NCBI GenBank assembly: GCA_003151795.1
Contig: PLYL01000006.1
Span: 1 to 54,300 of the forward strand
Source: Candidatus Yanofskybacteria bacterium
GTDB lineage: Bacteria > Patescibacteriota > Minisyncoccia > 2-02-FULL-40-12 > GWA2-44-9
Length of the DNA stretch: 54,300 nt
Direction: 5' to 3'
Shown: one piece after another, positions 8,552 to 52,707 of the stretch
Layout: every line of letters begins with the position of its first letter
How positions within the stretch are numbered: position 1 is the first letter of the stretch
The notes under the pieces: generated by a model
Seen by the model: the letters and a program-made list of their open reading frames with translations, nothing else
Databases searched by the model: none
What the model was told of the DNA's origin: nothing
Translations under genes and position numbers: made by a program

Positions 8552-8560
8552 GGGGAAAAA

Positions 8561-8676
8561 GAATTAAGAAGTTAGAATTAAGAATTACGAATCAGGCCAA
8601 CCAATTTATCATATTCTACACTAATTTTTAAATAAAAGCAAACAGGCCTTAATTCTTAATTCGTACTTCTTAATTC
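8561..8676 (-). repeat. 26-bp-arm inverted repeat spanning almost the whole LOG-lon intergenic region
   Basis: GAATTAAGAAGTTAGAATTAAGAATT (8561-8586) pairs with AATTCTTAATTCGTACTTCTTAATTC (8651-8676). The pairing is 12 bp, a 2-nt mismatch, then 12 bp. Confidence 0.8.
8613..8641 (-). promoter_or_regulatory. sigma70-like promoter for lon, inside the loop of the inverted repeat
   Basis: In - sense: TTGCTT, 17-nt spacer, TAGAAT. Confidence 0.55.
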
Positions 8677-8683
8677 TGGTTTT

Positions 8684-10820: not shown

Positions 10821-11654
10821 TTATACGATTAACAAAGCGATAACGTAACCAATCAGAGTCATTGTCGCAATCGGAGGCAAGGCCGCCATGGGCTGGCGTT
10901 TGGGCTGGCTGACGAAGATAACATGGGTCAGAAGCAAGCCCAGGAGCGCGAAGCACGCCACGATAATCGCCTCCGGCAATGATTGGCGGACCAAGGAGCT
11001 CACAAAAATTACGGGCAAACCAATATCGCCCGAACCGAGAATCATAAAATCTTGGCCGATGCGATGCTTGGCTTCATGGCGGGAGGCCATAAAGTGCCGA
11101 AAACTCGAAGGGATAATCAACCCGAACACGGCCCCGGAACGAATCATGCTCTCCGCCATCCGGACCATATGCCGGGTCTTATACACGGCGATGATATCGT
11201 AAAAAGACAGCAACACTAAAGCCAGGATGCCGACCGCCGGCGTAATCATGATGCCGATTGCGGCGCCGATGCCGGCAATGGCCAGAATAATCGCTAAATC
11301 GTGCACAATCACGTTATGGACTAGAAGAAAAATCGCCAGAATAAACAAAGCGCCGATAATATCGGTCGGGAATGGCGCCATCGAGGCAATCACAATCTGG
11401 GCGCCGGAGAGGATGATAATCGAGAGAAAAATCCAAAACATCCAGCTCGCTAGCCGAGGGGTCCGGCTAATGAACCAAACGGCGGCGAGGATGAAGGCAA
11501 ACCCGGCCAAGTCCCCGAGGGTGATGGAAGAGGGCTGATAAATTTCAACGCTCGAGAGCAGAAGCACATACCGATAGGCCACGAACAAACCCAGCGCGAG
11601 AGTCGCGCCGAACATCAACGCCTCTTTTAAAAAAAGACTTGGCTGGATTTTCAT
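10821..11654 (-). CDS. presenilin / signal-peptide-peptidase-like intramembrane aspartyl protease (A22-like)
   Basis: Polytopic protein with a YD motif (LLSFYDIIAVY), a GxGD motif (ILGSGDIGLP) and a PAL-like AALPP near the C-terminus. I set the start at ATG 11654 because the track extension is translation of the repeat arm. Confidence 0.6.
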   Translation of the reverse strand: MKIQPSLFLKEALMFGATLALGLFVAYRYVLLLSSVEIYQPSSITLGDLAGFAFILAAVWFISRTPRLASWMFWIFLSIIILSGAQIVIASMAPFPTDIIGALFILAIFLLVHNVIVHDLAIILAIAGIGAAIGIMITPAVGILALVLLSFYDIIAVYKTRHMVRMAESMIRSGAVFGLIIPSSFRHFMASRHEAKHRIGQDFMILGSGDIGLPVIFVSSLVRQSLPEAIIVACFALLGLLLTHVIFVSQPKRQPMAALPPIATMTLIGYVIALLIV

Positions 11655-11791
11655 CCCGCACATAACAAGCACCAACTGCTTAGGCAATACAAATGTTTGT
11701 ATTATCCAAGATTATCAGTGCTGCATGGTTAATATTATTTATATACAGACAGTGACATAATCGTATTGCAAGTGCTCGTTATGTGCGGGAT
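11653..11791 (-). repeat. type-1 palindromic intergenic element, copy 1 (139 nt)
   Basis: Arms 11653-11672 and 11772-11791 pair at 19/20 positions, with G.U at the exception in - sense. The element spans exactly from the stop TAA (11793-11791) to the ATG (11654-11652). Confidence 0.85.
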
Positions 11792-20240: not shown

Positions 20241-20311
20241 TTCTCAAAAACGCGCCTAGAAGCGTTTTTGAGAATGGTTTAAAAAACTACCATATGGTAG
20301 TTTTTTAAACC
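20241..20311. terminator. two tandem bidirectional hairpins between convergent rpsT and ftsW
   Basis: TTCTCAAAAACGC/GCGTTTTTGAGAA (20241-20274), followed by a perfect 36-nt palindrome GGTTTAAAAAACTACCAT/ATGGTAGTTTTTTAAACC (20276-20311). Confidence 0.7.
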
Positions 20312-20320
20312 ATTCTGTTT

Positions 20321-21413: not shown

Positions 21414-22478
21414 TTATTTAAATGGCGGGAGTTTGCTGTCGATGAGGAAGAGGACCAGGCCGATAATGGCGCCGATGGCGTTGATCATCCAGAAACGCAT
21501 GGTGATTTGGGTTTCGGGCCAGCCCATGGCTTCGAAGGTGTGGTGAATCGGCGTCGAAGGAAATATTTTCTTCTTCCGGATTTTTTTTGAAATAGTTTGG
21601 AGAATGACCGAGCCGGACTCCATCAAAGGAATAATGGCGATAATCGGCAAGAGCAATTCAGTATTCGTGAGCAACGCCACGACCCCGACCGTAAAACCCA
21701 GGGCCATCACACCGGTATCGCCCATGAAAAACTTGGCGGGATAAATATTGAACCACAGGAATCCAATCAGCGCGCCCATAATCGCAACGAGAAAAATCGT
21801 GAGATCAAAACGGCCCTGGTCAAACGCAATCGCGGCCAGCGCGCCAAAGATAGTGAGAAACACTCCGCCCGATAAACCATCGAGGCCGTCGGTTTCATTC
21901 ATTGAGAATGCTGTGGCAACCATAATAAAAATAAAATAAGGGATGTACCACCAACCAATCGTATATTCTCCCAGAAACGGCACCGTAATCGTCCGAATGT
22001 CGAGCTTAAAATAAAACCACCACGCGCCGATAGCCGCCACGCCAATAAAAAATAACAGGCGCTTGCTCAATTTTAGACCTCCGCGCTTTAAAACACCCAC
22101 CATGTCATCAGCCATGCCGACCAAGCCCGCGAGAATTAAAAAGCCCAATGGGAGCAAGGTCTGGCTTCGGGAAAGAAAATTAATCCGACCCCAGATACCG
22201 CCAAATAAAGTGGCGAGTAACCAGCACCCGAGAGTGATTATCGAAACGGTCAGCCAAATCGGCAAACCGCCCATCGTCGGGGTGCCTTCTTTTTTGCGAT
22301 GGAGACTATTAAAGATGGGTGTATCCGAGCGCTCAATGGCCTTGCCCGGTTTAAAGCGAGTGAACAAAACCTTAGTCCAGAAGTGGGTGATGATGAGATT
22401 TAAAAAGAAGGCCGTCGTGGCAATCACAAACAGCCGGACGACGTTAAATATATTGAGGCTTTCGAGAGGAATCGTCAT
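21414..22478 (-). CDS. mraY: phospho-N-acetylmuramoyl-pentapeptide transferase
   Basis: MGDTGVMALG, NETDGLDGL and other MraY motifs. Start at ATG 22478. Confidence 0.9.
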   Translation of the reverse strand: MTIPLESLNIFNVVRLFVIATTAFFLNLIITHFWTKVLFTRFKPGKAIERSDTPIFNSLHRKKEGTPTMGGLPIWLTVSIITLGCWLLATLFGGIWGRINFLSRSQTLLPLGFLILAGLVGMADDMVGVLKRGGLKLSKRLLFFIGVAAIGAWWFYFKLDIRTITVPFLGEYTIGWWYIPYFIFIMVATAFSMNETDGLDGLSGGVFLTIFGALAAIAFDQGRFDLTIFLVAIMGALIGFLWFNIYPAKFFMGDTGVMALGFTVGVVALLTNTELLLPIIAIIPLMESGSVILQTISKKIRKKKIFPSTPIHHTFEAMGWPETQITMRFWMINAIGAIIGLVLFLIDSKLPPFK

Positions 22479-22615
22479 CCCGCACATAACAAGCACCGAC
22501 TGCTTTAGCAATACGATTGTTCGTATTAACCAAGCTTATCAGTACTGTATGATTAATTATTATTAAATATGCATAGTCCCGCAGTAGTATTGCCAGTGCT
22601 TGTTATGTGCGGGAT
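22477..22615 (-). repeat. type-1 palindromic intergenic element, copy 2 (139 nt)
   Basis: Arms 22477-22496 and 22596-22615 are perfectly complementary (20/20). The element spans exactly from the stop TAA (22617-22615) to the mraY ATG (22478-22476). Confidence 0.9.
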
Positions 22616-26621: not shown

Positions 26622-28265
26622 CTATTTGGAACCGAGCGCTTCTTCGAGAATCCTCTTCAGTTCGGCGGTATCGATTTTTTTCTTGGGTCCGCGAGAATCG
26701 TTTTGGTTGGCCAATTTGTTTTTGGATTTCTGGCTGCGAAAATCAACGGTCGTAGCGACAGGGTTGCCATCCACGAGAGAATCAAGAGAGACGGCGGGTT
26801 TGGCTTCGTCTTTGGGTGGGGCGGGGGGGCGGGACAGCGGTTGCTGGAACCGAGGCGGATTATTAAGAGCTCGAGGACCCGTCTGCTGACGAGGCGGCCG
26901 AGAGCCTTGATAGCCACCGCGTGACGGACCGTAATCTCCCGGCGGACGGCGGTCACGGGGCGGCGAGGCCGGTTCAATCGGGGTCGCCCACTGGGCGACG
27001 TCTTTCTCTACGTCGTCTCGGTCGGAGGCATAGTGCGCGCGCGAATAGGCGATGACTTCGTCCTGGTGGGATTCTTCCATCGCCGTCAAGGAATCGCTGG
27101 TCCGGGCGGAAAAACCTTTGGACGTAATGCCGTCAACCATCAATTTAATGTACATCTCGCGCTTGCCGAGGTTGACGATATCGGCGGCCATGAAATCCGG
27201 CGCGTACCATTTTTCCAAAAACTCGGCGTCTTCCGCGCCGACCCGGAAAGTCACCAGCGTGCCGACGTTGCCGAAGACAGCATCCCGGACCTCTTCTTCC
27301 ATTTGGGTGATGTACTGGTGAGCCACGACCAGATTCAAGTGGTATTTGCGGGCTTCCGATAGAATATTAGCGAACGATTCGGTCGCAAAATTCTGAAACT
27401 CGTCGACGTAGAGGTAGAAATCGCGGCGTTCCGGTTCCGGCGTATCGACGCGGGACATGGCGGCCAGCTGAATCTTGGTAATCAGCAAGGCGCCGAGGAG
27501 GCGCGAGGCGTCCTCGCCGATGGCGCCTTTGGATAAGTTGACGATGAGAATCTTGCCCTCATCCATGATTTTGCGGATATCGAGCTTGGAATGAACCTGG
27601 CCGATGATATTGCGGATGACGTTGTTGGATGAGAATTGGCCGACTTTGTTTTGAATAGCGGCCGTCGCTTCGCTCGCGAATTTATCCGAGTACTTCGCGA
27701 ATTCTTCGGTCCAGAAGGCTTTGACAATCGGGTCTTTCAAATTATCGACGACTTTCCTGCGATATTCTTTGGACGCCATCAAGCGGTTAATCCCCAAAAG
27801 GGTCGAGTCCGGATATTCAAGCAAAGCGAGAATCGTATTGTTTAAAATGTATTCCATTCGGCCGGACCAGGCCTCCACGCCCCAGAGTTTTTTAAACACG
27901 CCCAAAAGTCCCGACGCAATCAAGTGGCGATATTCGTATTCGACTTTTTCCAGCACGTTAAACGCAATCGGATTGGTCAGGTCGCTCGGGTCAAAATAGA
28001 TGACGTCCTTGATGCGGTGCTCGGGTATAAAATTAATCAAAGCTTGAGCCCCGTCGCCGTGGGGATCAAAATAAGCCAGCCCGCGGCCCTCTTCGATATC
28101 CTGGATGGCCATGTTTTTCAAAAACTCGGACTTGCCCATGCCGGTCGAACCGACCACGTACATGTGCCGGCGCCGGTCGTCGGTCTTAATGCCAAAACGC
28201 TTCTTCTCGTTTCGGAAGTTTGTCTCGCCCAGAATAAGAATTTGATTGTCCGTTGGTAATGCCAT
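26622..28265 (-). CDS. VirD4/TraD-like (type IV coupling protein-like) P-loop ATPase with a low-complexity Pro/Arg/Gly tail
   Basis: Walker A (VVGSTGMGKS), Walker B (FYLYVDEFQNF) and VVAHQY. The C-terminal roughly 110 aa are rich in P/R/G/Q. Confidence 0.6.
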   Translation of the reverse strand: MALPTDNQILILGETNFRNEKKRFGIKTDDRRRHMYVVGSTGMGKSEFLKNMAIQDIEEGRGLAYFDPHGDGAQALINFIPEHRIKDVIYFDPSDLTNPIAFNVLEKVEYEYRHLIASGLLGVFKKLWGVEAWSGRMEYILNNTILALLEYPDSTLLGINRLMASKEYRRKVVDNLKDPIVKAFWTEEFAKYSDKFASEATAAIQNKVGQFSSNNVIRNIIGQVHSKLDIRKIMDEGKILIVNLSKGAIGEDASRLLGALLITKIQLAAMSRVDTPEPERRDFYLYVDEFQNFATESFANILSEARKYHLNLVVAHQYITQMEEEVRDAVFGNVGTLVTFRVGAEDAEFLEKWYAPDFMAADIVNLGKREMYIKLMVDGITSKGFSARTSDSLTAMEESHQDEVIAYSRAHYASDRDDVEKDVAQWATPIEPASPPRDRRPPGDYGPSRGGYQGSRPPRQQTGPRALNNPPRFQQPLSRPPAPPKDEAKPAVSLDSLVDGNPVATTVDFRSQKSKNKLANQNDSRGPKKKIDTAELKRILEEALGSK

Positions 28266-28267
28266 GG

Positions 28268-29575
28268 TTAAACAGTTGGAATTCCGGCCGGGGCTTCGCC
28301 TTTCTTGGTTTCGATGCGGGGCAAGGATGGCGTCTTCACGCCGACGTCGGGCACATGAAATATGGTCGTCAATTCTTCGGTATTCAAAACCAAAGGCTTA
28401 TCGGGGAAGGCGCGTTCTCGATAGCGTTTATATATTTTTTTCTTATTTTTTAAGGCTCGAACGGCTTTATTGAAGCCCTTGGTGATATCAGTCGAAATGC
28501 CCGGCTTGAAACCATTGAGAGCCTGAGTGGCGAATTGTTTGAACGCGCCGGCGACACTGCGCATCCGACCGTCGTCATATTTATCGAGCGGAGCGATATA
28601 AACCATCCGAATGCCGGCTTCAAAGGCTAGTTTGGCCGTGCCTTTTTCAATTGTTTTAACTATCTCCTGAATGCCAGGGTTGAGTTGATTGAATGGTTTG
28701 TCTTCTTTCTTTTTTTCTTCCTTTTTATCTTTTGGTTCGGCCGGCTCATAAATCGCGCCGGCGACGGAGCGGGCGCCGCCCTCAATGCCGGCAAAGACCG
28801 AATCGGCAAAATTTGTCTTTTTCTTTTCTTCTCGGCCCATCAGCTTGTCCACGGCCGGCTGGCCCTTTTTAACCCAGGCGTCCCCGGTCGAGCGGGCCAA
28901 AATCTGGATTCCGAAAAATTCCGAGAGACCCAGCGCGCCCAAAGTCTCGGCAATCGGGGCCAAAGGGTCAATCCGGCGGACGTCGTCTTTACCGGCGCCT
29001 TCTTCCTCAAATTCCGGATAGGTCTTGATGGGGAAAATATCTTCTTTGATGAAGACCAATTCGAGGGCGTTGACATTGACCTCGCCGTAAGACAGCGCGG
29101 CCGGAAAACGCGACATGTAATCCGCCACTGGCGTTAATTCCGATTCGGGATATTGGGCGTAAACCTGGGCTTCGACCAAACTTTTATACTTCTCGATGGC
29201 TCGAATGTAAAAATGAATCTCTCCGCCCGAACCGACCATTTCCAGCGCGAGCCAGTCCGGCACCTTGCCTTTAAAGAAGGCGTCCCGCCATTTTTTATAT
29301 TTTTCCCAGAGATTTTTGGCGGGCGACGATTGCCCGACGACGTGAAAGCCGGCGAAAATCTGCTCCATCGCCTTTAAGCTCTTATGGGCGTCAATGGGAA
29401 TCTTGAGCTCATAAGTAATCCACTTCAATCCGGCCTTGTAGACTTTTTTATTGTATTCCTTAAGCGCTTCCGCGTAGACGAAAATGAGGATGATGGGCGC
29501 CCAAAGCCACCAGTAGGCAAACATGAAACCCAAAGCCGTCCAAGTCGAGCCCAGGGTGTTTAGGATTGGATCCAT
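28268..29575 (-). CDS. membrane-anchored hypothetical protein, operon partner of the ATPase
   Basis: 435 aa starting at ATG 29575, with an N-terminal TM segment and a KKEEKKKEDK linker. Its stop lies 2 nt before the ATPase start. Confidence 0.5.
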   Translation of the reverse strand: MDPILNTLGSTWTALGFMFAYWWLWAPIILIFVYAEALKEYNKKVYKAGLKWITYELKIPIDAHKSLKAMEQIFAGFHVVGQSSPAKNLWEKYKKWRDAFFKGKVPDWLALEMVGSGGEIHFYIRAIEKYKSLVEAQVYAQYPESELTPVADYMSRFPAALSYGEVNVNALELVFIKEDIFPIKTYPEFEEEGAGKDDVRRIDPLAPIAETLGALGLSEFFGIQILARSTGDAWVKKGQPAVDKLMGREEKKKTNFADSVFAGIEGGARSVAGAIYEPAEPKDKKEEKKKEDKPFNQLNPGIQEIVKTIEKGTAKLAFEAGIRMVYIAPLDKYDDGRMRSVAGAFKQFATQALNGFKPGISTDITKGFNKAVRALKNKKKIYKRYRERAFPDKPLVLNTEELTTIFHVPDVGVKTPSLPRIETKKGEAPAGIPTV

Positions 29576-29710
29576 CCCGCACTTAACGAGCATCTGGCTT
29601 CTAGTCTCGCTCATCGTCTATGACGATATGCGCGCCAATGCTTATTATATTATATACAATATCTGGATACGCCATCACTTTAGAGACTAATGCTCGCTTA
29701 AGTGCGGGAT
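29574..29710 (-). repeat. type-1 palindromic element, copy 3 (137 nt, diverged)
   Basis: Arms 29574-29593 and 29690-29710 pair with one bulge. A second stem is TAGTCTC (29602-29608) / GAGACTA (29683-29689). The element ends at the ATG (29575-29573). Confidence 0.8.
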
Positions 29711-29748
29711 CCATTATGCTATTAGTATACTCCTTCCTAACATTACAT

Positions 29749-29775
29749 CAAAAGAGGCCTGGCGGGCCTCTTTTG
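29749..29775. terminator. hairpin terminator downstream of ORF 29785-30849
   Basis: CAAAAGAGGCC, a 5-nt loop, GGCCTCTTTTG. Confidence 0.6.
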
Positions 29776-29784
29776 ATGTGGAAG

Positions 29785-30849
29785 TTATTTCTTGAGATTA
29801 TAGGTGCCGTCAGGATTCTTCGTAAAAGTTTTGGAATCCTGAAGATTGAGCAAGATGGTATTTTCTTTGACCATGCGGGCGTCTTTGACTTTGGCCATCA
29901 GCGCGGCTTTCGCGAGAGGCTTATTCGAGGATTTGAGAATATCGACGAGCACGTCTTTGACGGTCCCGGCGCGATAACCCCATTCGGATAAGGCGTACAT
30001 TCCGCGGCCGACGAGGATAAAGCGGTCGTCTTTGATTAATTCATTATGGACGGTCTGGATGTTGGCTTTCTTATTATTGAAGCCGGAGGCGTTAATCAGG
30101 GACGCGATATCGCTGAAGTGCTGGGGCTTGGTGGATTTCTTAAGGACCAAGAAGGCTTTATCGCGGACGCCCTTGGGTTTGATTTCGGACCAGGAAGCCA
30201 AGCCGACTTCGTTGAAGATATTAGTGCCTAGATTCTTAGAAACGGCCATCACGAGATTAATGTCGGCTTCTGACAGCGGCTTCCCGCTCGTCGAAAAACT
30301 CGGCACGGCGTGTTTCTGGGCCAAGAAAGCAAAATCGGAATTAGAAACGACGCGGCCGGCTTTTTCCAGAACTTTGATTAAAGAATCGGTCGTCGCGGTG
30401 AAGGAAGCCAGGGTCGCGTTATCGACGGCCCAGAAAGAATTGAAATCATCGTTCTCCGGAGAACGGGCCAGCTCGTTGCTCAAGGTTAAAAGAAAGACCA
30501 GCGAACTGTTATTGATACTGTCGCTATCGCTGCCGCTGAAAGATTTGAAAAGGTCGCGCTCTTTGATGACGCCGCCGCGTTCATTCAAAATATCGCGGGC
30601 CAAAACGATGTAGCGCTTCACGTCCGGATGGCCGGCGGCGGCGAGACGGAGCTGGGCCAGGGTTGATTCCTCAATCTGGCGGACGCGTTCGCGGGTAATG
30701 CTGTAGGAAGCGCCGATGGACTCCAGGGTTTCTTTCTGGCCTGTTTTCAAGCCAAAACGGCGGGAGATGATGTCCTTATTGCGAGCCGAGGTGTTCTTAA
30801 GCAAATCGGCGACGGTTTTTTTGATATTGACTGATGTATTGGTGGCCAT
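29785..30849 (-). CDS. DNA-binding protein with an N-terminal sigma-70 region-4 HTH and a C-terminal HARE-HTH-like domain
   Basis: LESIGASYSITRERVRQIEESTLAQLR matches region 4. HFSDIASLI...VHNELIKDDRFILVGRGMYALSEWGY is HARE-HTH/delta-like. Confidence 0.55.
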   Translation of the reverse strand: MATNTSVNIKKTVADLLKNTSARNKDIISRRFGLKTGQKETLESIGASYSITRERVRQIEESTLAQLRLAAAGHPDVKRYIVLARDILNERGGVIKERDLFKSFSGSDSDSINNSSLVFLLTLSNELARSPENDDFNSFWAVDNATLASFTATTDSLIKVLEKAGRVVSNSDFAFLAQKHAVPSFSTSGKPLSEADINLVMAVSKNLGTNIFNEVGLASWSEIKPKGVRDKAFLVLKKSTKPQHFSDIASLINASGFNNKKANIQTVHNELIKDDRFILVGRGMYALSEWGYRAGTVKDVLVDILKSSNKPLAKAALMAKVKDARMVKENTILLNLQDSKTFTKNPDGTYNLKK

Positions 30850-33659: not shown

Positions 33660-33715
33660 GCCCGCGACGGCGCGCACCAAACGAGGTGCCCGTCGGACGC
33701 GGGCACTTTGTTTTT
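33660..33715 (+). terminator. conserved 18-nt 3' box plus intrinsic terminator (copy 1)
   Basis: GCCCGCGACGGCGCGCAC (33660-33677), then GTGCCCG, a 7-nt loop, CGGGCAC and TTTGTTTTT. Confidence 0.7.
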
Positions 33716-33759
33716 ATCTGTGCTCAAAAGTGTCCGTACGGACACTTTTGAGCACAGAT
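33716..33759. promoter_or_regulatory. perfect 44-bp palindrome (operator-like or cruciform)
   Basis: ATCTGTGCTCAAAAGTGTCCGT (33716-33737) is the exact reverse complement of ACGGACACTTTTGAGCACAGAT (33738-33759). Confidence 0.8.
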
Positions 33760-33779
33760 CAATCGAGAGATTCTTTTTC

Positions 33780-41161: not shown

Positions 41162-43858
41162 TTAGTTTTTACGGTGATAAGGCGCATTAATCATCCCACA
41201 TTTCTTATACTTATAAACTTGACCAGTAGCTGGATTAATCGCGCCACAAGGGCAAGGGTCATTGCGACCAATATTGTCTTCGGCGGTGTTGTAGACGACA
41301 GTGGTGCGTTCAGATTCTTTCTCAACGATAGTCTCCCCTTCTATATTAGCTCGACCTTCGATGGCTTTGGGACGTTCTGGTTGGCGCATCATGCTGACTT
41401 TAAATATCGCATCGACAACCTGAGCTTTGATGGTCTCAAGGAGCTGGGCAAACATACGCTGACCCTCGACTTTGTATTCCGCAAGCGGATCACGCTGACC
41501 ATAGGCTCGTAAACGGACGGAACCACGGAGATATTCCATATCGGAAATATGCTCAACCCAAATGTCATCGATAGTGCGAAGCATGACTAATTTCTCGAGC
41601 ATGCGCATCTGGTCGACACCGAGTTCTTCTTCACGCAAAACGTAACGCTTCGCGATATATTCATGCGAAAGCGTACGCAAACTTTCAACATCGCGATTTT
41701 CAGCAATCTCGGTTATTTTTTGACCAATATCAGAGCCAGCACCCACAATAGCTTCAAAGCCAGTGATTAATTCCTTTGAGTCCCATTCGTGACCGGCAGT
41801 ATGGAATTGAATCATGCGGTCAACGACATCGGTAATATATCCTTCGATGAGAGGTTTGGAACTTTCATCAAACAAAACCTGGCGGCGCAAACCATAGACG
41901 GTCTCGCGCTGTTTGTTCATGACGTCGTCGTATTCGAGAATATATTTGCGCGAGTCGAAGTTGTAACCCTCGATGCGCGTCTGGGCCTGCTGGATGGCGT
42001 TAGAGACGAATCGGTTTTCAATCACATCGTCTTCGCCAACGCCCAAGCGTTCCATGATGTTTTTGAGGCTGTCGCCGCCGAAACGCCGAACCAGCTCGTC
42101 TTCGGTCGAAACGAAAAATTGGGACGAACCCGGATCGCCCTGGCGGCCGGCCCGGCCCCGCAACTGGTCGTCAATTCGGCGGGCTTCATGACGCTCGGTG
42201 CCGATGACATGCAAACCGCCCAGGCCGATGACTTTTTCCTGCATGGCCTTATCGGGCGGATTGCCGCCCAGGATAATATCCACCCCGCGCCCGGCGATGT
42301 TGGTGGCGATGGTCACGGAGCCGTGCCGGCCGGCTTGGGCATGGAGCTCGGCTTCTTTTTCGTGGTTCTTTGCATTTAATAAAGTGTGGGGCACGCCCTC
42401 GCGCTGAAGCATCAAGGACAAGTATTCGTTCTTATCAATCGAAACCGTCCCGACCAGCACCGGCTGGCCGGTGGCATTACGGGCTTTGATTTCTTGGACG
42501 ATGGCGCGGAACTTGCCGGCTTCGTTTTTGAAAATCTTGTCGGGCAAGTCTTTGCGGATGTTTGGCCTATTTGTTGGAATGGTAATCGCGTCCAACTCGT
42601 AGACTTTATGGAATTCTTCGGCCGAACTCTGGGCGGTTCCGGTCATGCCGGCCAGTTTTTTATAGAGGCGGAAATAATTCTGAAACGTAATCGTAGCCAA
42701 GGTGCGGGATTCTTTTTGAATCTTGACGCCTTCTTTGGCTTCGACGGCTTGATGAAGACCCTCGGACCAGCGCCGGCCCGGCATCAACCGGCCCGTGAAT
42801 TCGTCGACGATAATCACTTCGCCGTCTTTGACGACGTAGTTCTGGTCCCGATGGAAAATAATCTGGGCTTTGAGCGCTTGCTCGAGATGGTGGACGTATT
42901 TGACCCCGCCTTCATCGTAGATATTCTTCACGCCCAGCAACTGCTCGACTTTCTCAATCCCAGTTTCGGTAATTGAAACCGCTTTTTCTTTGATATCAAC
43001 AGCGTAGTCTTCAATATCTTTTAATTTCGGCGCGATTTTGGCGAACGTCGCGTACAATTCGCCCGAATCCTCATCGGGCGCGGAAATAATCAACGGCGTG
43101 CGGGCTTCGTCAATGAGAATCGAGTCGACTTCGTCGACAATCGCGAAGTTATGCCCGCCCTCGTCGGCCGAGCGCTGGGACATCTGCTCCGGCGAATAGG
43201 CCATGTTGTCGCGCAAATAATCAAAACCGTATTCGTTATTCGTGCCGTAAGTAATATCGCAGGCGTAAGCCTGTTTTCGGGTAATGGGGCGAAGCAATTC
43301 GTGGACGACTTTGAAACCGCCTTCGGTGTCTTCTTCCTTATCTTGTTCTTTAGTGATATGCGAGGCGTCGTACTGATAGCTCGCTTCATGATTGATAGTG
43401 GCGACAGTCAAACCTAAAGCATCATAAATCTGGCCCATCCAAGCCGCGTCGCGCCGAGCCAGATAATCATTGACCGTAACCATATGCACACCCTGACCCG
43501 TCAGCGCGTTCAAATACACCGGCGCCGTGGCCACGAGGGTCTTACCTTCACCGGTCCGCATTTCTGTGATTGTCCCGCGATGCAAGGCAATCCCGCCAAC
43601 GAGCTGAACGTCATAGTGACGCTGACCCAAGGTGCGCTTAGACGCCTCGCGAACCGCGGCGAACGCTTCGGGCAATAAATCATCCAATGTCTCGCCGTCC
43701 ACGAGGCGTTTCTTGAATTCGGCCGTCTTTCCCTTCAATTGCTCATCCGAAAGCGCCACGAAATCTTTTTCGAGGTCATTAATCTTCTGAATTGTCGGAT
43801 CTAGGTCTTTGATGTACCTAGAATTTGCATCGCCGAATATTTTAGATATGAAAGACAT
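41162..43858 (-). CDS. secA: preprotein translocase ATPase SecA
   Basis: About 898 aa from ATG 43858 (MSFISKIFGD). It has DEAD-motor motifs and a C-terminal zinc-finger tail, CPCG...KYKKCG...H. Confidence 0.95.
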   Translation of the reverse strand: MSFISKIFGDANSRYIKDLDPTIQKINDLEKDFVALSDEQLKGKTAEFKKRLVDGETLDDLLPEAFAAVREASKRTLGQRHYDVQLVGGIALHRGTITEMRTGEGKTLVATAPVYLNALTGQGVHMVTVNDYLARRDAAWMGQIYDALGLTVATINHEASYQYDASHITKEQDKEEDTEGGFKVVHELLRPITRKQAYACDITYGTNNEYGFDYLRDNMAYSPEQMSQRSADEGGHNFAIVDEVDSILIDEARTPLIISAPDEDSGELYATFAKIAPKLKDIEDYAVDIKEKAVSITETGIEKVEQLLGVKNIYDEGGVKYVHHLEQALKAQIIFHRDQNYVVKDGEVIIVDEFTGRLMPGRRWSEGLHQAVEAKEGVKIQKESRTLATITFQNYFRLYKKLAGMTGTAQSSAEEFHKVYELDAITIPTNRPNIRKDLPDKIFKNEAGKFRAIVQEIKARNATGQPVLVGTVSIDKNEYLSLMLQREGVPHTLLNAKNHEKEAELHAQAGRHGSVTIATNIAGRGVDIILGGNPPDKAMQEKVIGLGGLHVIGTERHEARRIDDQLRGRAGRQGDPGSSQFFVSTEDELVRRFGGDSLKNIMERLGVGEDDVIENRFVSNAIQQAQTRIEGYNFDSRKYILEYDDVMNKQRETVYGLRRQVLFDESSKPLIEGYITDVVDRMIQFHTAGHEWDSKELITGFEAIVGAGSDIGQKITEIAENRDVESLRTLSHEYIAKRYVLREEELGVDQMRMLEKLVMLRTIDDIWVEHISDMEYLRGSVRLRAYGQRDPLAEYKVEGQRMFAQLLETIKAQVVDAIFKVSMMRQPERPKAIEGRANIEGETIVEKESERTTVVYNTAEDNIGRNDPCPCGAINPATGQVYKYKKCGMINAPYHRKN

Positions 43859-43878
43859 AATTGATTTATTCGCGCCTG

Positions 43879-43955
43879 CCCCGTCACTAAACGAGCATCT
43901 TTTCTGAAGCCTCATGCGTAAGCATGTATTGGCTTATGCTCGTTTTAGTGCGGGG
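43879..43955 (-). repeat. type-1 palindromic element, short form (77 nt)
   Basis: Arms CCCCGTCACTAAACGAGCAT (43879-43898) and ATGCTCGTTTTAGTGCGGGG (43936-43955). A second stem is AAGCC/GGCTT. The element lies 20 nt upstream of the secA ATG. Confidence 0.75.
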
Positions 43956-44026
43956 TCCCCAAAGATACTAGATAAAAACGCCATAATTTAGCTATTCTAG
44001 CATTATTTTCTACTAAAATATATAGT

Positions 44027-44671: not shown

Positions 44672-44996
44672 ATTTACTAGGCTTGCGAGACAAGTCTTTT
44701 TTCTTTTCTTTGAGCTTTTTGATTTGGAGATGGAGTTCGTCGCGAGCTTCGTCGATGGCGGTGCGGAGATCCTTGTGGGTCGCTTCGCCGCGCAAGAGCG
44801 CGCCGCCGACTTTTAGATTTACTTCGGCATAAAATACGGGACCAGAACGATGGCGGAGCGAAGGCTTGCCGATTTCCACACTCGCACTGACTGGGCCCTT
44901 CTGAATAAACCTCTCGAGACTGCCTATCTTCTGTTCCGTAAATACCCGCAACGGCGCGTCGAGGGTGATGTTTTTGGCGGTAATATTTATTTTCAT
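44670..44996 (-). CDS. hpf: ribosome hibernation promoting factor (short HPF/RaiA)
   Basis: MKINITAKNITLDAPLRVFTEQKIGSLERF... is typical of HPF. 108 aa. Confidence 0.85.
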   Translation of the reverse strand: MKINITAKNITLDAPLRVFTEQKIGSLERFIQKGPVSASVEIGKPSLRHRSGPVFYAEVNLKVGGALLRGEATHKDLRTAIDEARDELHLQIKKLKEKKKDLSRKPSK

Positions 44997-45066
44997 CCCG
45001 TTAGAAGTTGCCAGCCCGAGGCCCTGCGGACTGCACTCAAAGTGCAGGCTGGACTCTAAACGGGAC
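44995..45066 (-). repeat. type-2 start-codon-abutting hairpin element (72 nt)
   Basis: TCCCG/CGGGA and CCAGCC/GGCTGG stems enclose a CTGCAC-n5-GTGCAG hairpin. The element ends at the hpf ATG (44996-44994). Confidence 0.75.
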
Positions 45067-48883: not shown

Positions 48884-51103
48884 CTACCAAGTTCGGCCGA
48901 GTTTCTGGACAAAGAGTTTGGCGTCGGCTTCAAAGCTAGGATCGATTTGGGCGGTAATGTGCGCTTGGGCGATAGCATCGTCAATCCGGCCGACGCTGGC
49001 GTAAGCAGCCGCCAAAGAAGCGTGGTACTGGGGGCTGTTGGGAACTAATTTGACTAATCCTTCATATACTGTCACGAGGTGCTGGAAATCGTTGCGCTTG
49101 ATATAAATGTTGGCAAGATTTAGATAATCGTTCTCGGCTAATGTGTATCCTTTCTTAATTGCTTCATCCATGTTAACCAAGGCTTTGTCGGTCTCGCCGG
49201 CTTGCATCTCAACGGCACCGAGATACCAATATGAAATACCGACATCGGGATTAAGGTCAACCGCTTTCTGGAAGGCGACTTCAGCCTTCGGATAATCCTT
49301 TTTGTTAAGATAGGCCTGGCCGACTTCATAATAGGTGCGGACGAATGTCGGCGAATAACTCAACGCCTTTGTGGAATGCTTCAAGGCCTCGTCATTATAC
49401 GGCGAATTAGGGTCTGATTTGCCAAGAATAATGTTTAAGCGGGATAGGTATAGCTCCGGCAAATAATCTTCAGTGTTCTCCGCCGCATTTTTTTCTTCCA
49501 AAGCAATAATTTCTTTAAAAATATCGGCTACTTCCGGCGTTATTTTATTACTATTACTATAGTCCAGCAGGAACTGGGCAAATTGGTTTCGATATTCATA
49601 TCGGCCATTTCCGTCGAAGGAAACGGCATCCCGGTAAGACGCGACCGCGGCGGTGAAATCATTGTTGTAGCCCGCGATAATGCCTCGGGTCGTGGCGTAA
49701 TTGGCAATGGCCGTCCGAACATTCGTCTGATACGCCAAATAAACGGCGCCGACGATAACGATAGCACCAAGCACGAACGTTAATCCTCCGGAAACCGGCC
49801 GGCCCGTTTTTGTTTCAATTCTCGGAGATTCCGGCCGGTTCAAAAACGAAATGTAGCCCAAGGCGCTGAAGAAGACCAGAAAATTCGCCGAAGTGTCGAA
49901 TATAAACGCGTTGTGAATTATATACGCGATGACCATGGAGATAAGGCCAATGGCCGGAACGCGGAATCCAGGCTTATTTTTTAAACGCCACAGCGCCCGG
50001 AATATCACGCCAAATAACGCTAGGTAGGCCAGAAACCCAAGCAGGCCCATCGTGACGAGAATTTCGACAAACATGTTGTGAGCTCGGTCAAACATGGTTT
50101 CTGAACTGGGGCCATTAAAGAATTTGGGATTGAAATATTTTGAAAACGGAATATTAAAATTTTCCGGGCCCCAGCCGAAAATAATTCTTTGGGGGCTCTC
50201 GCTCCAGCCTTTCAAACCGGCTTGCCAAGCCCAGAACCGGGTTTGGACGGTATAACTGGAGAGGGAAAGATCGGTCACCCGGCGCAAATATTGGGAGTTT
50301 TGAACAATTGCGCTATTTTTGAAAGCAAAAGCAAACCCGACGAACAGCACAACAAAGACCAGCATGGAAATCAAGACTTTTTTAGCCAGTTTTGAATTGG
50401 TTTGGGCAAAATACAAAAAAACAAAAACAAGAAAACCAATGCTTATTCCCAAAATAGAACCGCGGACCACAGTCATAAATACCGCCAGACTCATAACGGC
50501 CGCGGAAATTAGGAAAAAATTACGCTTGCTCTTTACGGCAGCCCCGAATCCTAGAATCAGCGCCAAGAAAACATTCAGAATCTGATAGCCGGCGAAAAGA
50601 GCCGGATTGCCAATCGTGCCGAAAATACGCTCCCGACCGCCGGAACCGATAAAGAAAGCTATATTAGTTCGTTGGCCAAATCCATACAGCGCCGAGAGCA
50701 CGCCGACGCCCACTGTAATTTCTAAGAACCTGAACCAGTCGTCTTTGGTTCGAAGAACCGAAGTTAGGATGATATAAAAGATGAAATAGTGCCAGAAGCT
50801 ATAGAGGCCACCCATGCGTTCAAGGGTGCCCCAGAAACTCTGATAGACATTTATACTCGTAAACGTCGTGACAGTGAAGGCGAGCGTGAAACTAAGAAAA
50901 GCCCAAAAGAAGATGTCGCGCCGAGGTAAAAAGGACCGATCCTGCCAGATTAAGACCAGGTAGAGAGCCAGCATAATCTCAACTAGACTTCTAAAGAGAA
51001 CTATTTTCCCAAAATGAAACGGCGAAATATACTGTGAAAAAATAACCAGCGGCATAAACGCGGCCGCGTAGACGCAATACTTCAATATTTTGTGGATATT
51101 CAT
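48884..51103 (-). CDS. O-antigen-ligase-like polytopic membrane protein fused to C-terminal TPR repeats
   Basis: 739 aa. The N-terminal roughly 440 aa are multi-TM and Wzy_C-like. The C-terminal part has TPR-like repeats (AYLNKKDYPKAEVAFQKAVDLNP and others). Confidence 0.7.
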   Translation of the reverse strand: MNIHKILKYCVYAAAFMPLVIFSQYISPFHFGKIVLFRSLVEIMLALYLVLIWQDRSFLPRRDIFFWAFLSFTLAFTVTTFTSINVYQSFWGTLERMGGLYSFWHYFIFYIILTSVLRTKDDWFRFLEITVGVGVLSALYGFGQRTNIAFFIGSGGRERIFGTIGNPALFAGYQILNVFLALILGFGAAVKSKRNFFLISAAVMSLAVFMTVVRGSILGISIGFLVFVFLYFAQTNSKLAKKVLISMLVFVVLFVGFAFAFKNSAIVQNSQYLRRVTDLSLSSYTVQTRFWAWQAGLKGWSESPQRIIFGWGPENFNIPFSKYFNPKFFNGPSSETMFDRAHNMFVEILVTMGLLGFLAYLALFGVIFRALWRLKNKPGFRVPAIGLISMVIAYIIHNAFIFDTSANFLVFFSALGYISFLNRPESPRIETKTGRPVSGGLTFVLGAIVIVGAVYLAYQTNVRTAIANYATTRGIIAGYNNDFTAAVASYRDAVSFDGNGRYEYRNQFAQFLLDYSNSNKITPEVADIFKEIIALEEKNAAENTEDYLPELYLSRLNIILGKSDPNSPYNDEALKHSTKALSYSPTFVRTYYEVGQAYLNKKDYPKAEVAFQKAVDLNPDVGISYWYLGAVEMQAGETDKALVNMDEAIKKGYTLAENDYLNLANIYIKRNDFQHLVTVYEGLVKLVPNSPQYHASLAAAYASVGRIDDAIAQAHITAQIDPSFEADAKLFVQKLGRTW

Positions 51104-51179
51104 CCCGTTAGAAGTAGCCCCGCCAAGGTCCTCCGGACTCGTCCAGCCTTCGGCGGACGAGCGAGACTTCTAACGGGAT
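51102..51179 (-). repeat. type-2 start-codon-abutting hairpin element (78 nt)
   Basis: ATCCCGTTAGAAGT (51102-51115) is perfectly complementary to ACTTCTAACGGGAT (51166-51179). The element ends at the ATG (51103-51101). Confidence 0.8.
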
Positions 51180-51190
51180 TCATTGATTAT

Positions 51191-51218
51191 ATTCTACGCT
51201 CTTCAACGGCGGGGTCAA
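51191..51218 (-). promoter_or_regulatory. promoter immediately upstream of the type-2 element
   Basis: In - sense: TTGACC, 16-nt spacer, TAGAAT. The predicted start site is only a few nt before the 5' arm. Confidence 0.5.
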
Positions 51219-51240
51219 CCCCTCACTTGAAAAGCAATGA

Positions 51241-52584
51241 TTAAGTCGTCGCCGAAGGCGATTGCTTCTCAAGTGAGGGATCCAGGTGGGCCAGAAGATA
51301 AAAGAAGGACGCCAGGTGAGAAATCGTGAACCAGCAGGTAACCATGATCACGGCCCCCCAGACGCCAAAATGGCTTATCAGGTACAACCCGCCCGGAATA
51401 CCGATACCGAGCGTGATAGTGTTGATAAGAATGGAAATTTTGACCTTATTGATGGCCCGCCACATCGGCCCCAGGCCGACTCCGATACCAAGAAATGCTC
51501 CATAAATTCCCAAGCCTAGAATATACTTCACGCCGGAAATAAAATTTGCGCCATACAAAATCCGGAGCGCGATAGGCGACACGACTAGAGCCCCAGCCGT
51601 CAGTATCACCGAACCCAACAAAGAATATAGAGAAACTCGGATAAAATTTTTGCGTAACGCCCGGGGGTCTTCTTCACGCATTCGCGGTAGTTCGACGTTT
51701 AAAAGAGTGGAGATGGGCCCCATCAAACCAATCACTAAATTGACGTAGGCCAGGGAGATTTTGAAATAGGTCACTTCGGTCGTGGAAACATACAGCGCCA
51801 CCATCAATATCGGCAAAAGATTATAGAGGGTGGCAATATTCTTATCCAACGCGATCCAGGCGCTGAAACTCAAATGTTTTCTGACGTGGCCGGGACCGGT
51901 GGGAGCGATTAATTCCCGAAAGGATGGGAAGGCTATATCGCTCCGGCGGATGTGTTCCCAGACAACTATCGAGACAACCAGCATTATCAGCGCGCCCACT
52001 AAATGGCCGGTCATCGCGCCAGTAATGCCGAAGCCAAGCGCCGCCAGGGAAAGGGCCAGAATATTGCGCACGATTTGGTCAGTGAAAGTGAGCACGGCCA
52101 TTTGTTTTATCTTGCCGATGATCTGATAGGCCAAAGTCGAGAAATTCAGGAACGTGTTAGATATAAAAGAGGCAATAATCAGAATGCCCGCGTACCAGCC
52201 GATTAGAGAGTTGTGATAGATCTTTGAGGCCAAGGACGGCGCCGCCAGAGCAGCGATAACGGACAGGAAACCAATGACAAATGTCATCTTGGCCATAAAC
52301 ATAAAGGCCTCGCGAGTGGCTTGATGGTCCTGGCGGGCATGAGTCCCGCCGACTATCGTCGTGACTGCGTCTTGGACGCCCAAACTGACAATGAGCACCA
52401 GCAAGCCGGCCAAGCTGAAAGCAATCGCGTAGATTCCGAATAACTGGGGCTGGAGAAGGCGGGCGATAATGATGCCGGCCACGCCTTGGACCAGCGTGCT
52501 CCCAAAATTTCCAATTTGAAGCGTCGCGACATTTTTGACGAATCGGTTTTGACTGAAATAGGTTATATGTTCCTTTACGCTCAT
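51241..52584 (-). CDS. polysaccharide/oligosaccharide flippase (Wzx, MOP superfamily)
   Basis: 447 aa with about 12-14 TM helices. It sits in a glycan-gene context. Confidence 0.65.
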   Translation of the reverse strand: MSVKEHITYFSQNRFVKNVATLQIGNFGSTLVQGVAGIIIARLLQPQLFGIYAIAFSLAGLLVLIVSLGVQDAVTTIVGGTHARQDHQATREAFMFMAKMTFVIGFLSVIAALAAPSLASKIYHNSLIGWYAGILIIASFISNTFLNFSTLAYQIIGKIKQMAVLTFTDQIVRNILALSLAALGFGITGAMTGHLVGALIMLVVSIVVWEHIRRSDIAFPSFRELIAPTGPGHVRKHLSFSAWIALDKNIATLYNLLPILMVALYVSTTEVTYFKISLAYVNLVIGLMGPISTLLNVELPRMREEDPRALRKNFIRVSLYSLLGSVILTAGALVVSPIALRILYGANFISGVKYILGLGIYGAFLGIGVGLGPMWRAINKVKISILINTITLGIGIPGGLYLISHFGVWGAVIMVTCWFTISHLASFFYLLAHLDPSLEKQSPSATT

Positions 52585-52648
52585 CGCGGGAGATAAATTA
52601 AGACCTTATAGTAACACGGATAACGCTTACTTTCTAGAATGATTTATA

Positions 52649-52690
52649 ATCTAAAACCTCTCCGACAATATCGTCGGAGAGGTTTTAGAT
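52649..52690 (-). terminator. perfect 18-bp hairpin downstream of ORF 52708-53697
   Basis: ATCTAAAACCTCTCCGAC, a 6-nt loop, GTCGGAGAGGTTTTAGAT. There is no clear U-tract. Confidence 0.5.
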
Positions 52691-52707
52691 TAAGTTAACC
52701 TTAACTG

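Follow-up and report, generated by a model that had tools for sequence, protein, structure and literature searches.

The 54,300-nt stretch of DNA analyzed here (the window) comes from Candidatus Yanofskybacteria and carries several copies of a short, palindromic element. We focus on the third full copy, copy 3, whose right end is joined to the start codon of a gene for a DUF8128 (PF26449) membrane protein; the next gene encodes a VirD4/TraG-like ATPase. The genes at this locus lie on the minus strand, and the RNA sense of the element runs from position 29710 to 29574. On the 5' side of copy 3, the stop codon of a sigma-70-like gene is followed by a terminator-like hairpin and then by a promoter-like site. 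The original prediction had attributed the lack of a stop codon at the 5' arm of this copy to an upstream terminator. The terminator and the promoter that follows it are both found, and they explain why the stop codon is missing. Synteny around the DUF8128/VirD4-like gene pair is conserved in six related contigs. (Metagenome loci and contigs carry numbers with the prefix L; L173, L175 and L176 are 14, 21 and 21 kb long.) The TATACT box of the promoter-like site is invariant in L173, L175, L176, L177 and L178, where it is always 9–10 nt 5' of the gene's ATG. DUF8128 orthologues begin with MDPILNTLGS or MDYLANTLGS at the equivalent codon, indicating that ATG 29575-29573 is the true start. For the same reason, the longer mechanical open reading frame (ORF) at 28268..29614 was rejected as the DUF8128 gene.

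The window as a whole is a housekeeping stretch, with genes for an AsnRS-type tRNA synthetase, S11 peptidase, MraY, FtsW, SecDF, SecA, Lon and UvrB. Shine-Dalgarno-like 4-mers precede only 3 of the 34 window genes, and many genes have a TATAAT-like (-10-like) box 6–10 nt 5' of the ATG. These features suggest that this genome makes frequent use of leaderless mRNAs and of stop/start coupling. Because a -10-like box is often close upstream and Shine-Dalgarno sequences are rare, the targets of the element look like leaderless starts.

Copy 3 is built from nested helices. In helix 1, AUCCCGCACUUAAGCGAGCAU pairs with AUGCUCGUUAAGUGCGGGAU to form 20 pairs with one bulged G; 20 of the 21 positions of the longer arm are thus paired, and the single bulge reads C on the plus strand. 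The arm, local-hairpin and ATG coordinates given in the original prediction were all recovered in the sequence, as were its second helix, TAGTCTC/GAGACTA, and its 8-nt loop. Three features come in addition to that prediction: the 8-nt direct repeat on either side of the element, the promoter-like site, and two short helix-1-only relatives elsewhere in the window. Helix 1, helix 2 and the local hairpin are all present in the minimum-energy fold of the sense strand, which has a free energy of -60.7 kcal/mol (z = -5.47 against 200 shuffles, none of which was as stable). The antisense strand folds nearly as strongly (z = -4.85) because the arms are palindromic. The GCCA of the asymmetric loop GAAGCCAG can pair with UGGC (~29673-29670). 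Pseudoknot pairing of the 3' loop with the segment that follows helix 2 recurs in other members with different sequences, with a common register in 22 of 31 and a combined shuffle p = 0.024, so such an interaction is predicted as possible.

Several other roles for parts of the element were considered. The idea that the 3' arm contains a promoter that fires at the ATG was dropped, as positions -12 to -7 read GTTATG or TTAAGT, a poor -10 box. A central TATAAT is common in the elements and, as a promoter, would give a 75-nt leader. The upstream ATG opens a 37-codon upstream ORF that ends at UAG 29603-29601; it is not kept in L121 or L131. The peptide DPALKRA is common to this upstream ORF and to a hairpin near secA, and reflects nucleotide homology of the arms together with a duplicated gene start; a coding role of the arm was therefore rejected. 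Likenesses of the arms to dif/Xer sites, attC cores and the initiator-tRNA anticodon loop each extend over only 5–6 nt, and none is conserved from one subfamily to the next. An internal UGCGGGAC/U motif ~35 nt into the element (window 22580-22573, with equivalents in many relatives) can pair with UCCCGCA of the 5' arm in place of the 3' arm. It has decayed in many copies (UGCGUCAC, UGCGACAC) and may represent either an alternative fold or a relic.

Copy 3 belongs to a family that extends well beyond the window. Metagenomes were scanned with a strand-symmetric pattern that uses only the 12 terminal bases of each arm and leaves the base following the element unspecified. The scan returned 55 loci with 49 distinct elements, the window copies included. 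In 45 of the 49, an ATG followed by an ORF begins at exactly one end of the element, where G follows ...GGGAU; the junction with the AUG had been proposed as the constant feature of the family, and it is. About 10% of the copies are not at an ATG. The elements are about 115–142 nt long and non-coding, and their 20-nt arms are 97.5% complementary (46 gap-free elements). The orientation of the interior agrees with that of the gene in all clearly alignable members. A looser pattern, TYGTTANGTGCGGGAT, matched 117 loci in genome contigs, nearly all by chance; the only real relative among them is L036. The window sequence occurs in peat metagenomes and its closest protein relatives carry the names Candidatus Yanofskybacteria or Patescibacteria; the elements live in Candidatus Yanofskybacteria and related Patescibacteria, of the candidate phyla radiation (CPR). 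Viral contigs gave no match to the element. Searching Rfam 15 with the whole window at the gathering threshold found tRNA-Lys only and no family matching the element. At E <= 1, region 29480-29820 gave one sub-threshold match, on the terminator, and none on the element.

Within the family, the ends are conserved and the interior is not. Copies 1 and 2 have the first 13 and last 15 bases in common with copy 3, in the same layout. When 31 members are aligned on a model, pairing in helix 1 reaches 98.7%; both partners have changed in 6 of its 20 pairs, and in 4 of the 5 pairs of helix 2. Subfamilies can be told apart by the distal third of helix 1 (AAGCAC/GUGCUU, CAGCCAU/AUGGCUG, AAAGAC/GUCUUU, among others) and by helix 2 (GCAAUAC, GCAGUAC, AUGCAGC, GUCUC). 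Copy 3 forms a subfamily with L121, L131 and L177, in which helix 2 shows compensatory changes: AGUCUC/GAGACU, UGUCUC/GAGACA (L121) and GUUUC/GAAAC (L131). The covariance model R1 scores copy 3 at 78.8 bits. Model R2, built without the copy-3 subfamily, still detects it at 53.1 bits in sense and 50.1 bits in antisense (E ~3e-10), a strand preference of 3 bits, indicating that its family membership rests on the palindromic arms. Mismatches in helix 1 comprise 10 G.U and 9 A.C; with no wobble bias on the sense strand, there is no sign of selection on the sense RNA alone.

These comparisons bear out the assignment of copy 3 to the family of copies 1 and 2: it has the AUCCCGCAC/GUGCGGGAU ends, with the terminal 9 nt in common, a helix 1 of ~20 bp, a helix 2 of unrelated, covarying sequence 0–2 nt further in, and a 3' end fused to the AUG. 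Its helices can be placed in register with the family alignment, the arms carrying the signal. Copy 3 is no single diverged copy; it has a subfamily of its own. Of the loop core AAGC-N-G that had been described as common to the three copies, AAGC stands and the rest differs (AAGCAG versus AAGCCAG). The local hairpin exists; it cannot be aligned to the AAUAC hairpin of copies 1 and 2 that it had been said to replace. The sequence comparison thus indicates that the interior of copy 3 is analogous, and not homologous, to that of copies 1 and 2.

The junction with the gene has two sides. At the right end, ...GUGCGGG is joined to the ATG; at the left end, (A)UCCCGCAC... is joined 4–8 nt into the gene, such that the start codon is duplicated. 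Direct repeats of 5–8 nt are found in 29 of 45 elements, beginning at an ATG in the 5' flank, running into the element and matching the functional start. With shuffled flanks the corresponding count averages 1.7 and never exceeds 7. The base that follows the ATG varies from element to element, and does so in step in both copies of the repeat (ATGA/ATGA, ATGG/ATGG, ATGC/ATGC). This match of the variable fourth base indicates that the repeat was made at each insertion rather than carried by the element. Among promoter-proximal cases, TAnnnT boxes peak 6–7 nt 5' of the upstream ATG (11 of 28, versus about 1 for each other offset), which marks the upstream ATG as a former leaderless start.

Stop codons at the upstream junction come in two arrangements. 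Five or six elements are preceded by a long ORF whose terminal TGA is part of the upstream ATGA, a duplicated ATGA stop/start overlap. In the other arrangement, with 8 occurrences including copies 1 and 2, a TAA stop overlaps the first A of the element. Two orthologous pairs connect a repeat-bearing junction to a stop-abutting one: L123 reads cctAATatgcAATcccg versus cctAATcccg in L170, and L154 reads ctAATcatgtgAATcccg versus ctAATcccg in L122. Each stop-abutting junction differs from its repeat-bearing counterpart only by the loss of 7–9 nt between two AAT triplets. Our reading is therefore that the stop-abutting form arose secondarily and that the upstream ATG can be dispensed with; in L176 the upstream ATG is CTG. 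Where TAA lies just upstream, the old start copy may later be lost by deletion between short AAT repeats, leaving the stop-abutting form.

Orthologous sites are found both with and without the element. The copy-3 site is empty in L178, the closest relative (87% amino acid identity), and in L173 and L175. It is filled in the window, in L177 (85%) with nearly the same element, and in L176 (68%) with an element of the copy-1 type. The copy-1 site, between the S11 peptidase and MraY genes, is filled in the window and empty in L175 and L176, and the AsnRS/S11 junction is filled in L176 and empty in the window and L175. A covariance-model search found no copy in L173 or L175 and three full and one short copy in L176; the window holds three full and two short type-1 copies. 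The empty L178 site reads TATACT-aaatagtata-ATGGATCC-TATCC and the filled window site TATACT-aatagcata-ATGGATCC-(CGCAC...GUGCGGG-ATGGATCC)-AATCC. The filled site is thus the empty site plus the element and a second ATGGATCC, with the gene start present on each side of the insert. A model of insertion with a 2-bp AT duplication was rejected for copy 3, as removing such an insert shifts the frame of the gene. In the peat DNA runs, contigs were thin and contained no joints showing the empty allele within the same population. The empty and filled orthologous sites, together with the direct repeat over the start codon, indicate that the family behaves as mobile DNA and not as a vertically conserved RNA leader.

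Copies at the same site in different genomes are nonetheless alike. Helix 1 differs at 4 of 320 positions versus 68 of 771 in the interior (Fisher p = 3.5e-7), and the flanks of the same copies differ by ~17–24%. Between copy 3 and the L177 copy there are 8 differences, all at element positions 47–67; the other 116 nt are identical, unpaired loops included. The flanks of these two copies have 72 differences in the next 300 nt of the gene and 16 in the upstream 120 nt. Such conservation could be due to selection acting on the site, to master copies that are themselves conserved and repeatedly re-insert at one start codon, or to gene conversion. Since a single site carries two subfamilies, at least replacement or independent insertion does happen.

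Table 1. Coordinates of copy 3, its surroundings and related elements in the window.
Feature	Position	Strand	Basis or remark
Copy 3 of the palindromic element, AUCCCGCAC...GUGCGGGAU, 137 nt	29574..29710	-	sequence, fold, covariance models
Helix 1, 5' arm (RNA sense), 21 nt, one bulged G	29690..29710	-	sequence, fold
Helix 1, 3' arm; final two bases are A and U of the start codon	29574..29593	-	sequence, fold
Helix 2, 5' strand UAGUCUC	29683..29689	-	fold; compensatory variants in subfamily
Helix 2, 3' strand GAGACUA	29602..29608	-	sequence, fold
Asymmetric loop, 8 nt, GAAGCCAG (RNA sense), on 3' side	29594..29601	-	sequence
Local hairpin AUCGUC-AUA-GACGAU	29613..29627	-	sequence, fold; identical in same-site L177 copy
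Central A+T-rich region with TATAAT (29654-29649)	29644..29664	-	sole part differing from L177 copy
Direct repeat ATGGATCC, upstream copy (old start codon)	29707..29714	-	sequence; empty L178 site has ATGGATCC once
Direct repeat ATGGATCC, downstream copy (functional start of DUF8128 gene)	29568..29575	-	sequence, orthologues
Start codon ATG of DUF8128 gene	29575-29573	-	sequence, orthologues
DUF8128 (PF26449) membrane-protein gene	28268..29575	-	downstream of copy 3
VirD4/TraG-like ATPase gene	26622-28265		next after DUF8128 gene
Promoter-like site TTGATG-16-TATACT	29724..29751	-	9 nt 5' of upstream ATG
Terminator-like hairpin of upstream sigma-70-like gene	29745..29779	-	
Copy 1	22477..22615	-	between S11 peptidase gene (TAA overlaps the element's first A) and mraY (ATG overlaps last AU)
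Copy 2	11653..11791	-	between 93-aa ORF and signal-peptide-peptidase-like gene
Short helix-1-only relative	43878..43956	-	inside duplicated secA 5' end
Short helix-1-only relative	51218..51281	-	at end of polysaccharide-synthesis gene
Type-2 element, AUCCCG...CGGGAU-G ends, repeat ATGAAT	51102..51179	-	own leaderless-type promoter
Second type-2 element	44995..45065	-	directly 5' of hpf/raiA-like gene; site empty in L175

Based on these observations, we suggest that copy 3 belongs to a family of non-autonomous palindromic elements, similar to transposable elements of the miniature inverted-repeat type (MITEs) or REPINs, that insert specifically at start codons and whose own RNA fold brings the sequence upstream of the insert next to the AUG. 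We give this combined reading a probability of about 0.6. Its first part, a mobile palindromic element specific for start codons, is very probably correct; the second, that juxtaposition or unmasking keeps the gene translated, is tentative. Mobility may come about by non-autonomous transposition or by integration of circles guided by ATGN(N) microhomology. Many targets appear to use leaderless mRNA, with a -10 box 6–9 nt 5' of the ATG and no Shine-Dalgarno sequence, and the element would thus make up the first 140 nt of the transcript or be transcribed between two coupled cistrons. Once transcribed, the ~20-bp helix would pack the insert into a rod, bringing the 5' flank (the transcript start or an upstream stop codon) beside the AUG. 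For copies inside operons, ~12 nt of the 5' arm would already be open once a ribosome has come to a stop at the UAA or UGA of the 5' base; the 3' arm would then be free, and the tethered AUG available for re-initiation. Where a copy lies at the 5' end of a transcript, the AUG would have to be reached by breathing of the helix or after a cut of the RNase III/RNase J type. The leaderless-translation factor YchF is retained in CPR genomes, as are RNase III and RNase J (PMC12641178). This end-to-end geometry would make insertion before essential genes tolerable. A bolder version holds that the element is selfish DNA that homes to start codons and neutralizes itself in translation: the hairpin would act as a 'translational splice' that sets the 5' end or upstream stop against the AUG, with (re-)initiation across a 140-nt insert without a Shine-Dalgarno sequence. 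It would also explain the near-invariant stems and loops at sites whose flanking genes diverge by ~20%; we consider this version unlikely.

Several observations weigh against our interpretation. No transposase or other mobilizing gene is present among the called genes of the loci, including L173–L178, although no genome-wide search was made. The repeat is absent from 15 of 45 elements, some of which may be explained by later AAT-mediated deletion. Where present, its left edge is fixed at the ATG and its length varies (4–8 nt, and ~45 nt, diverged, at secA), unlike a classical target-site duplication of fixed length. Conservation of same-site copies far above their flanks could reflect a host-level function rather than a tolerated parasite. 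An AUG whose A and U are paired at the end of a helix should be a poor initiation site. Finally, the loci had no coverage in three peat metatranscriptome runs of the same study.

The host-level function would be explicit if the element were a domesticated processing signal. In this scenario, an RNase III-type enzyme, possibly followed by RNase J trimming, would cut the hairpin, separate the cistrons, leave a protective hairpin on the upstream mRNA and create a leaderless or near-leaderless 5' end at the AUG, and the host would need the element. The helix of 20 bp ending at the AUG in 45 of 49 copies, the leaderless-type, Shine-Dalgarno-poor genome, the retention of rnc, rnj and YchF in CPR genomes and the strong conservation of stems and loops in situ are all in its favor, and in Neisseria mRNAs RNase III is known to cut Correia elements at their inverted repeats (PMC2649163, PMC10969869). 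However, bacterial RNase III cuts inside a helix and not at its base, which would leave a leader of ~10 nt, and the nearest relatives have the same genes without the element. We therefore think that a processing role that the host depends on is unlikely.

The conserved ends, variable centre and fixed orientation to the gene are also what one would expect of a recombination site. The palindromes could serve a site-specific recombinase as attC- or dif-like substrates, or could be circles that, once excised, use microhomology to re-integrate at ATGAA-type starts; they would mark cassette or gene boundaries. Variable repeat length is predicted by microhomology, the joined ends give a perfect palindrome (CGGGATCCCG), copy 3 holds a GTTAAGT that fits GTTRRRY, and the diverged 45-nt duplication at secA resembles recombination with foreign DNA. 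The GTTRRRY/RYYYAAC-like motifs are, however, not at the element ends, where attC cores sit; no integrase and no array of promoterless ORFs was found, and the flanks are syntenic housekeeping genes. A recombination site is, in our judgment, rather improbable.

A third possibility is a cis-regulatory RNA passed on by vertical inheritance, for instance a riboswitch, a thermometer or a protein-binding leader, which would mask the start codon and control the translation of membrane-protein genes. Such an RNA would account for a fold more stable than shuffled sequences, a covarying helix 2, the possible pseudoknot, the loops conserved between the window and L177, and the membrane proteins encoded downstream in the window. 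It is difficult to reconcile with orthologous sites that are empty in the closest relatives, with different subfamilies at one site, with unrelated downstream genes, with an interior not conserved between subfamilies, with equal G.U and A.C in helix 1, and with the lack of an Rfam match even at E = 1. We regard it as very unlikely. No more credible is a translational bypass or shunt, in which a ribosome at the 5' AUG or stop codon takes off at the helix base and lands on the identical AUG opposite, as in phage T4 gene 60 or the cauliflower mosaic virus (CaMV) shunt. The ATGN repeat in 29 of 45 copies would supply matching take-off and landing sites, a stop or start codon lies 0–2 nt from the helix base, and the helix juxtaposes both sites. 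But the upstream ATG is dispensable (CTG in L176, deleted in L170 and L122), no nascent peptide is conserved, and the last sense codon in the stop-abutting form does not match AUG. A chance palindrome or ordinary intrinsic terminator, which the many perfect palindromes of this genome might bring to mind, is refuted by the 49 related elements in independent metagenomes, by the fold (z = -5.5), by the ORF start in place of a U-tract, and by the genuine terminator 35 nt upstream.

The window and its relatives contain further elements that resemble copy 3 or share its sites. Type 2 is a second palindrome family, AUCCCGUUAGAAGU...ACUUCUAACGGGAU-G, likewise fused to ATGs; the one at 51102-51179 is at the ATG of an O-antigen-ligase/TPR gene, with the promoter TTGACC-16-TAGAAT-7-ATG. 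A type-1 and then a type-2 element directly adjoin (...GUGCGGGAUGAAUCCCGUUAG...) in L118:8573-8730 and L168:915-1075, indicating that both families use the same ATGAA sites and can stack. The start of secA is duplicated (window 43858-44000, minus strand). The native promoter and first 10 codons come first (ATG 43984, MAFLSSIFGD, almost identical to the L175 secA start), followed by the short hairpin at 43956-43878, a 20-nt spacer and a diverged second start. The real secA start is this second ATG at 43858, MSFISKIFGDANSRY, and the start at ATG 43915 in the ORF list is wrong. At L176:2442-2582, a full element lies off an ATG, between a terminator and a perfect promoter, and the -35 box begins with the element's last T (GGGAT/TGACA-17-TACAAT, the slash marking the element end).

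Further arm variants, ACCCCGC(C/U)CUUGAAGAGC..., and 60-nt helix-1-only forms are found at L137:1585-1709, L168:9380-9510, window 51218-51281, L176:8557-8617 and L142:122-181. Their sequences suggest a wider superfamily with (A/G)(U/C)CCCGC...GCGGG(A/G)(U/C) ends, some arm variants of which precede GTG. The window also contains three perfect or near-perfect loop-less palindromes with 23–25 nt per arm (33713-33762, 20271-20316 and 52647-52692) and a long A+T-rich inverted repeat 5' of lon (8559-8677). These are probably bidirectional terminators or operators, and are unrelated to the element in sequence. Another mobile feature of the clade is a LAGLIDADG_3 homing-endonuclease-type gene in the syntenic region of L176 (14376-15218), which is absent there from the window.

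If our reading is right, mobile DNA is active in the streamlined genomes of the CPR, usually thought to be poor in such elements. Placed on the AUG of essential genes (mraY, secA), a very stable hairpin would also be a natural experiment on leaderless and coupled translation. The 'translational splice', if true, would give bacteria a counterpart of the ribosome shunt, one linked to leaderless translation in CPR. There is also a practical consequence: ORF calls that start inside the 3' arm or loop of an element are found in the window (28268-29614, 21414-22511 and 10821-11687) and in a public gene call (P0002, 'MLVKCGMDP...'), and the annotation of these genomes is affected. Annotation pipelines for Patescibacteria could mask the elements.

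We found no description in the literature of a repeat family that is fused to the start codon and duplicates it, and the term 'start codon' is absent from a 2024 review of prokaryotic MITEs. The Correia elements (CREE/NEMIS) of Neisseria are ~100–155 bp and non-coding, with ~26-bp inverted repeats, and many copies are gene-adjacent and co-transcribed; their RNA hairpin can be cut by RNase III, they can carry promoter boxes, and their insertion is polymorphic between strains (PMC2649163, PMC10969869). The likeness lies in small, non-coding inverted-repeat elements beside genes whose arms form an RNA hairpin. Correia elements, however, produce a TA duplication and insert without a set orientation or distance relative to genes, whereas in the present family 92% of copies have the right end fused to the ATG, the orientation is fixed, and the repeat consists of the start codon plus 1–5 nt; sequence and phylum are unrelated. 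Identity with Correia elements was therefore rejected: the arms read ATCCCGCAC..., the flanks are ATGN, or TA/A on one side only, and there is no Neisseria-type 26-bp repeat or TA duplication. REPINs consist of two ~20–25-nt arms inverted around a variable spacer, form long hairpins and persist as variant populations in lineages (PMC3116915, PMC3337134). They resemble the present family in the conserved inverted arms, the variable spacer and the long hairpins. They differ in being extragenic, usually after genes, with no target duplication or start-codon junction, and in depending on a RAYT gene flanked by REPs; no RAYT (PF01797-type, Y1 HUH) gene was present in the loci examined, which are partial contigs and were not complemented by a genome-wide search. 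ERIC/IRU sequences and Rickettsia palindromic elements (RPE) are ~100–150-bp palindromes in transcribed regions; RPE lie in frame within genes, and ERIC alter mRNA processing (PMC10969869). Like the present element they are tolerated through where or how they insert, but neither is tied to the start codon or duplicates it.

Two further systems invite comparison. Like the present element, integron attC sites have conserved ends, a variable centre, a fixed orientation and a position at ORF boundaries; they are imperfect palindromes of 57–141 nt with extrahelical bases. The element is not an attC site: its ends, ATCCCGCAC/GTGCGGGAT, lack the R''/R' cores (RYYYAAC...GTTRRRY), its GTTAAGT is internal, there is no integrase or cassette array, and its neighbours are housekeeping genes. 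In the split Shine-Dalgarno–AUG hairpins of T4 genes 38 and 25, the T4 gene 60 bypass and the CaMV shunt, a stable stem removes the intervening RNA and juxtaposes an upstream site with the codon for start or landing. Each of those systems uses one dedicated site, whereas the present case is a mobile repeat family with no Shine-Dalgarno sequence, known from sequence alone. The element shows general features of MITEs: it is small, has no ORF, ends in terminal inverted repeats, is dispersed in multiple copies, and is found at three sites in both the empty and the filled state.

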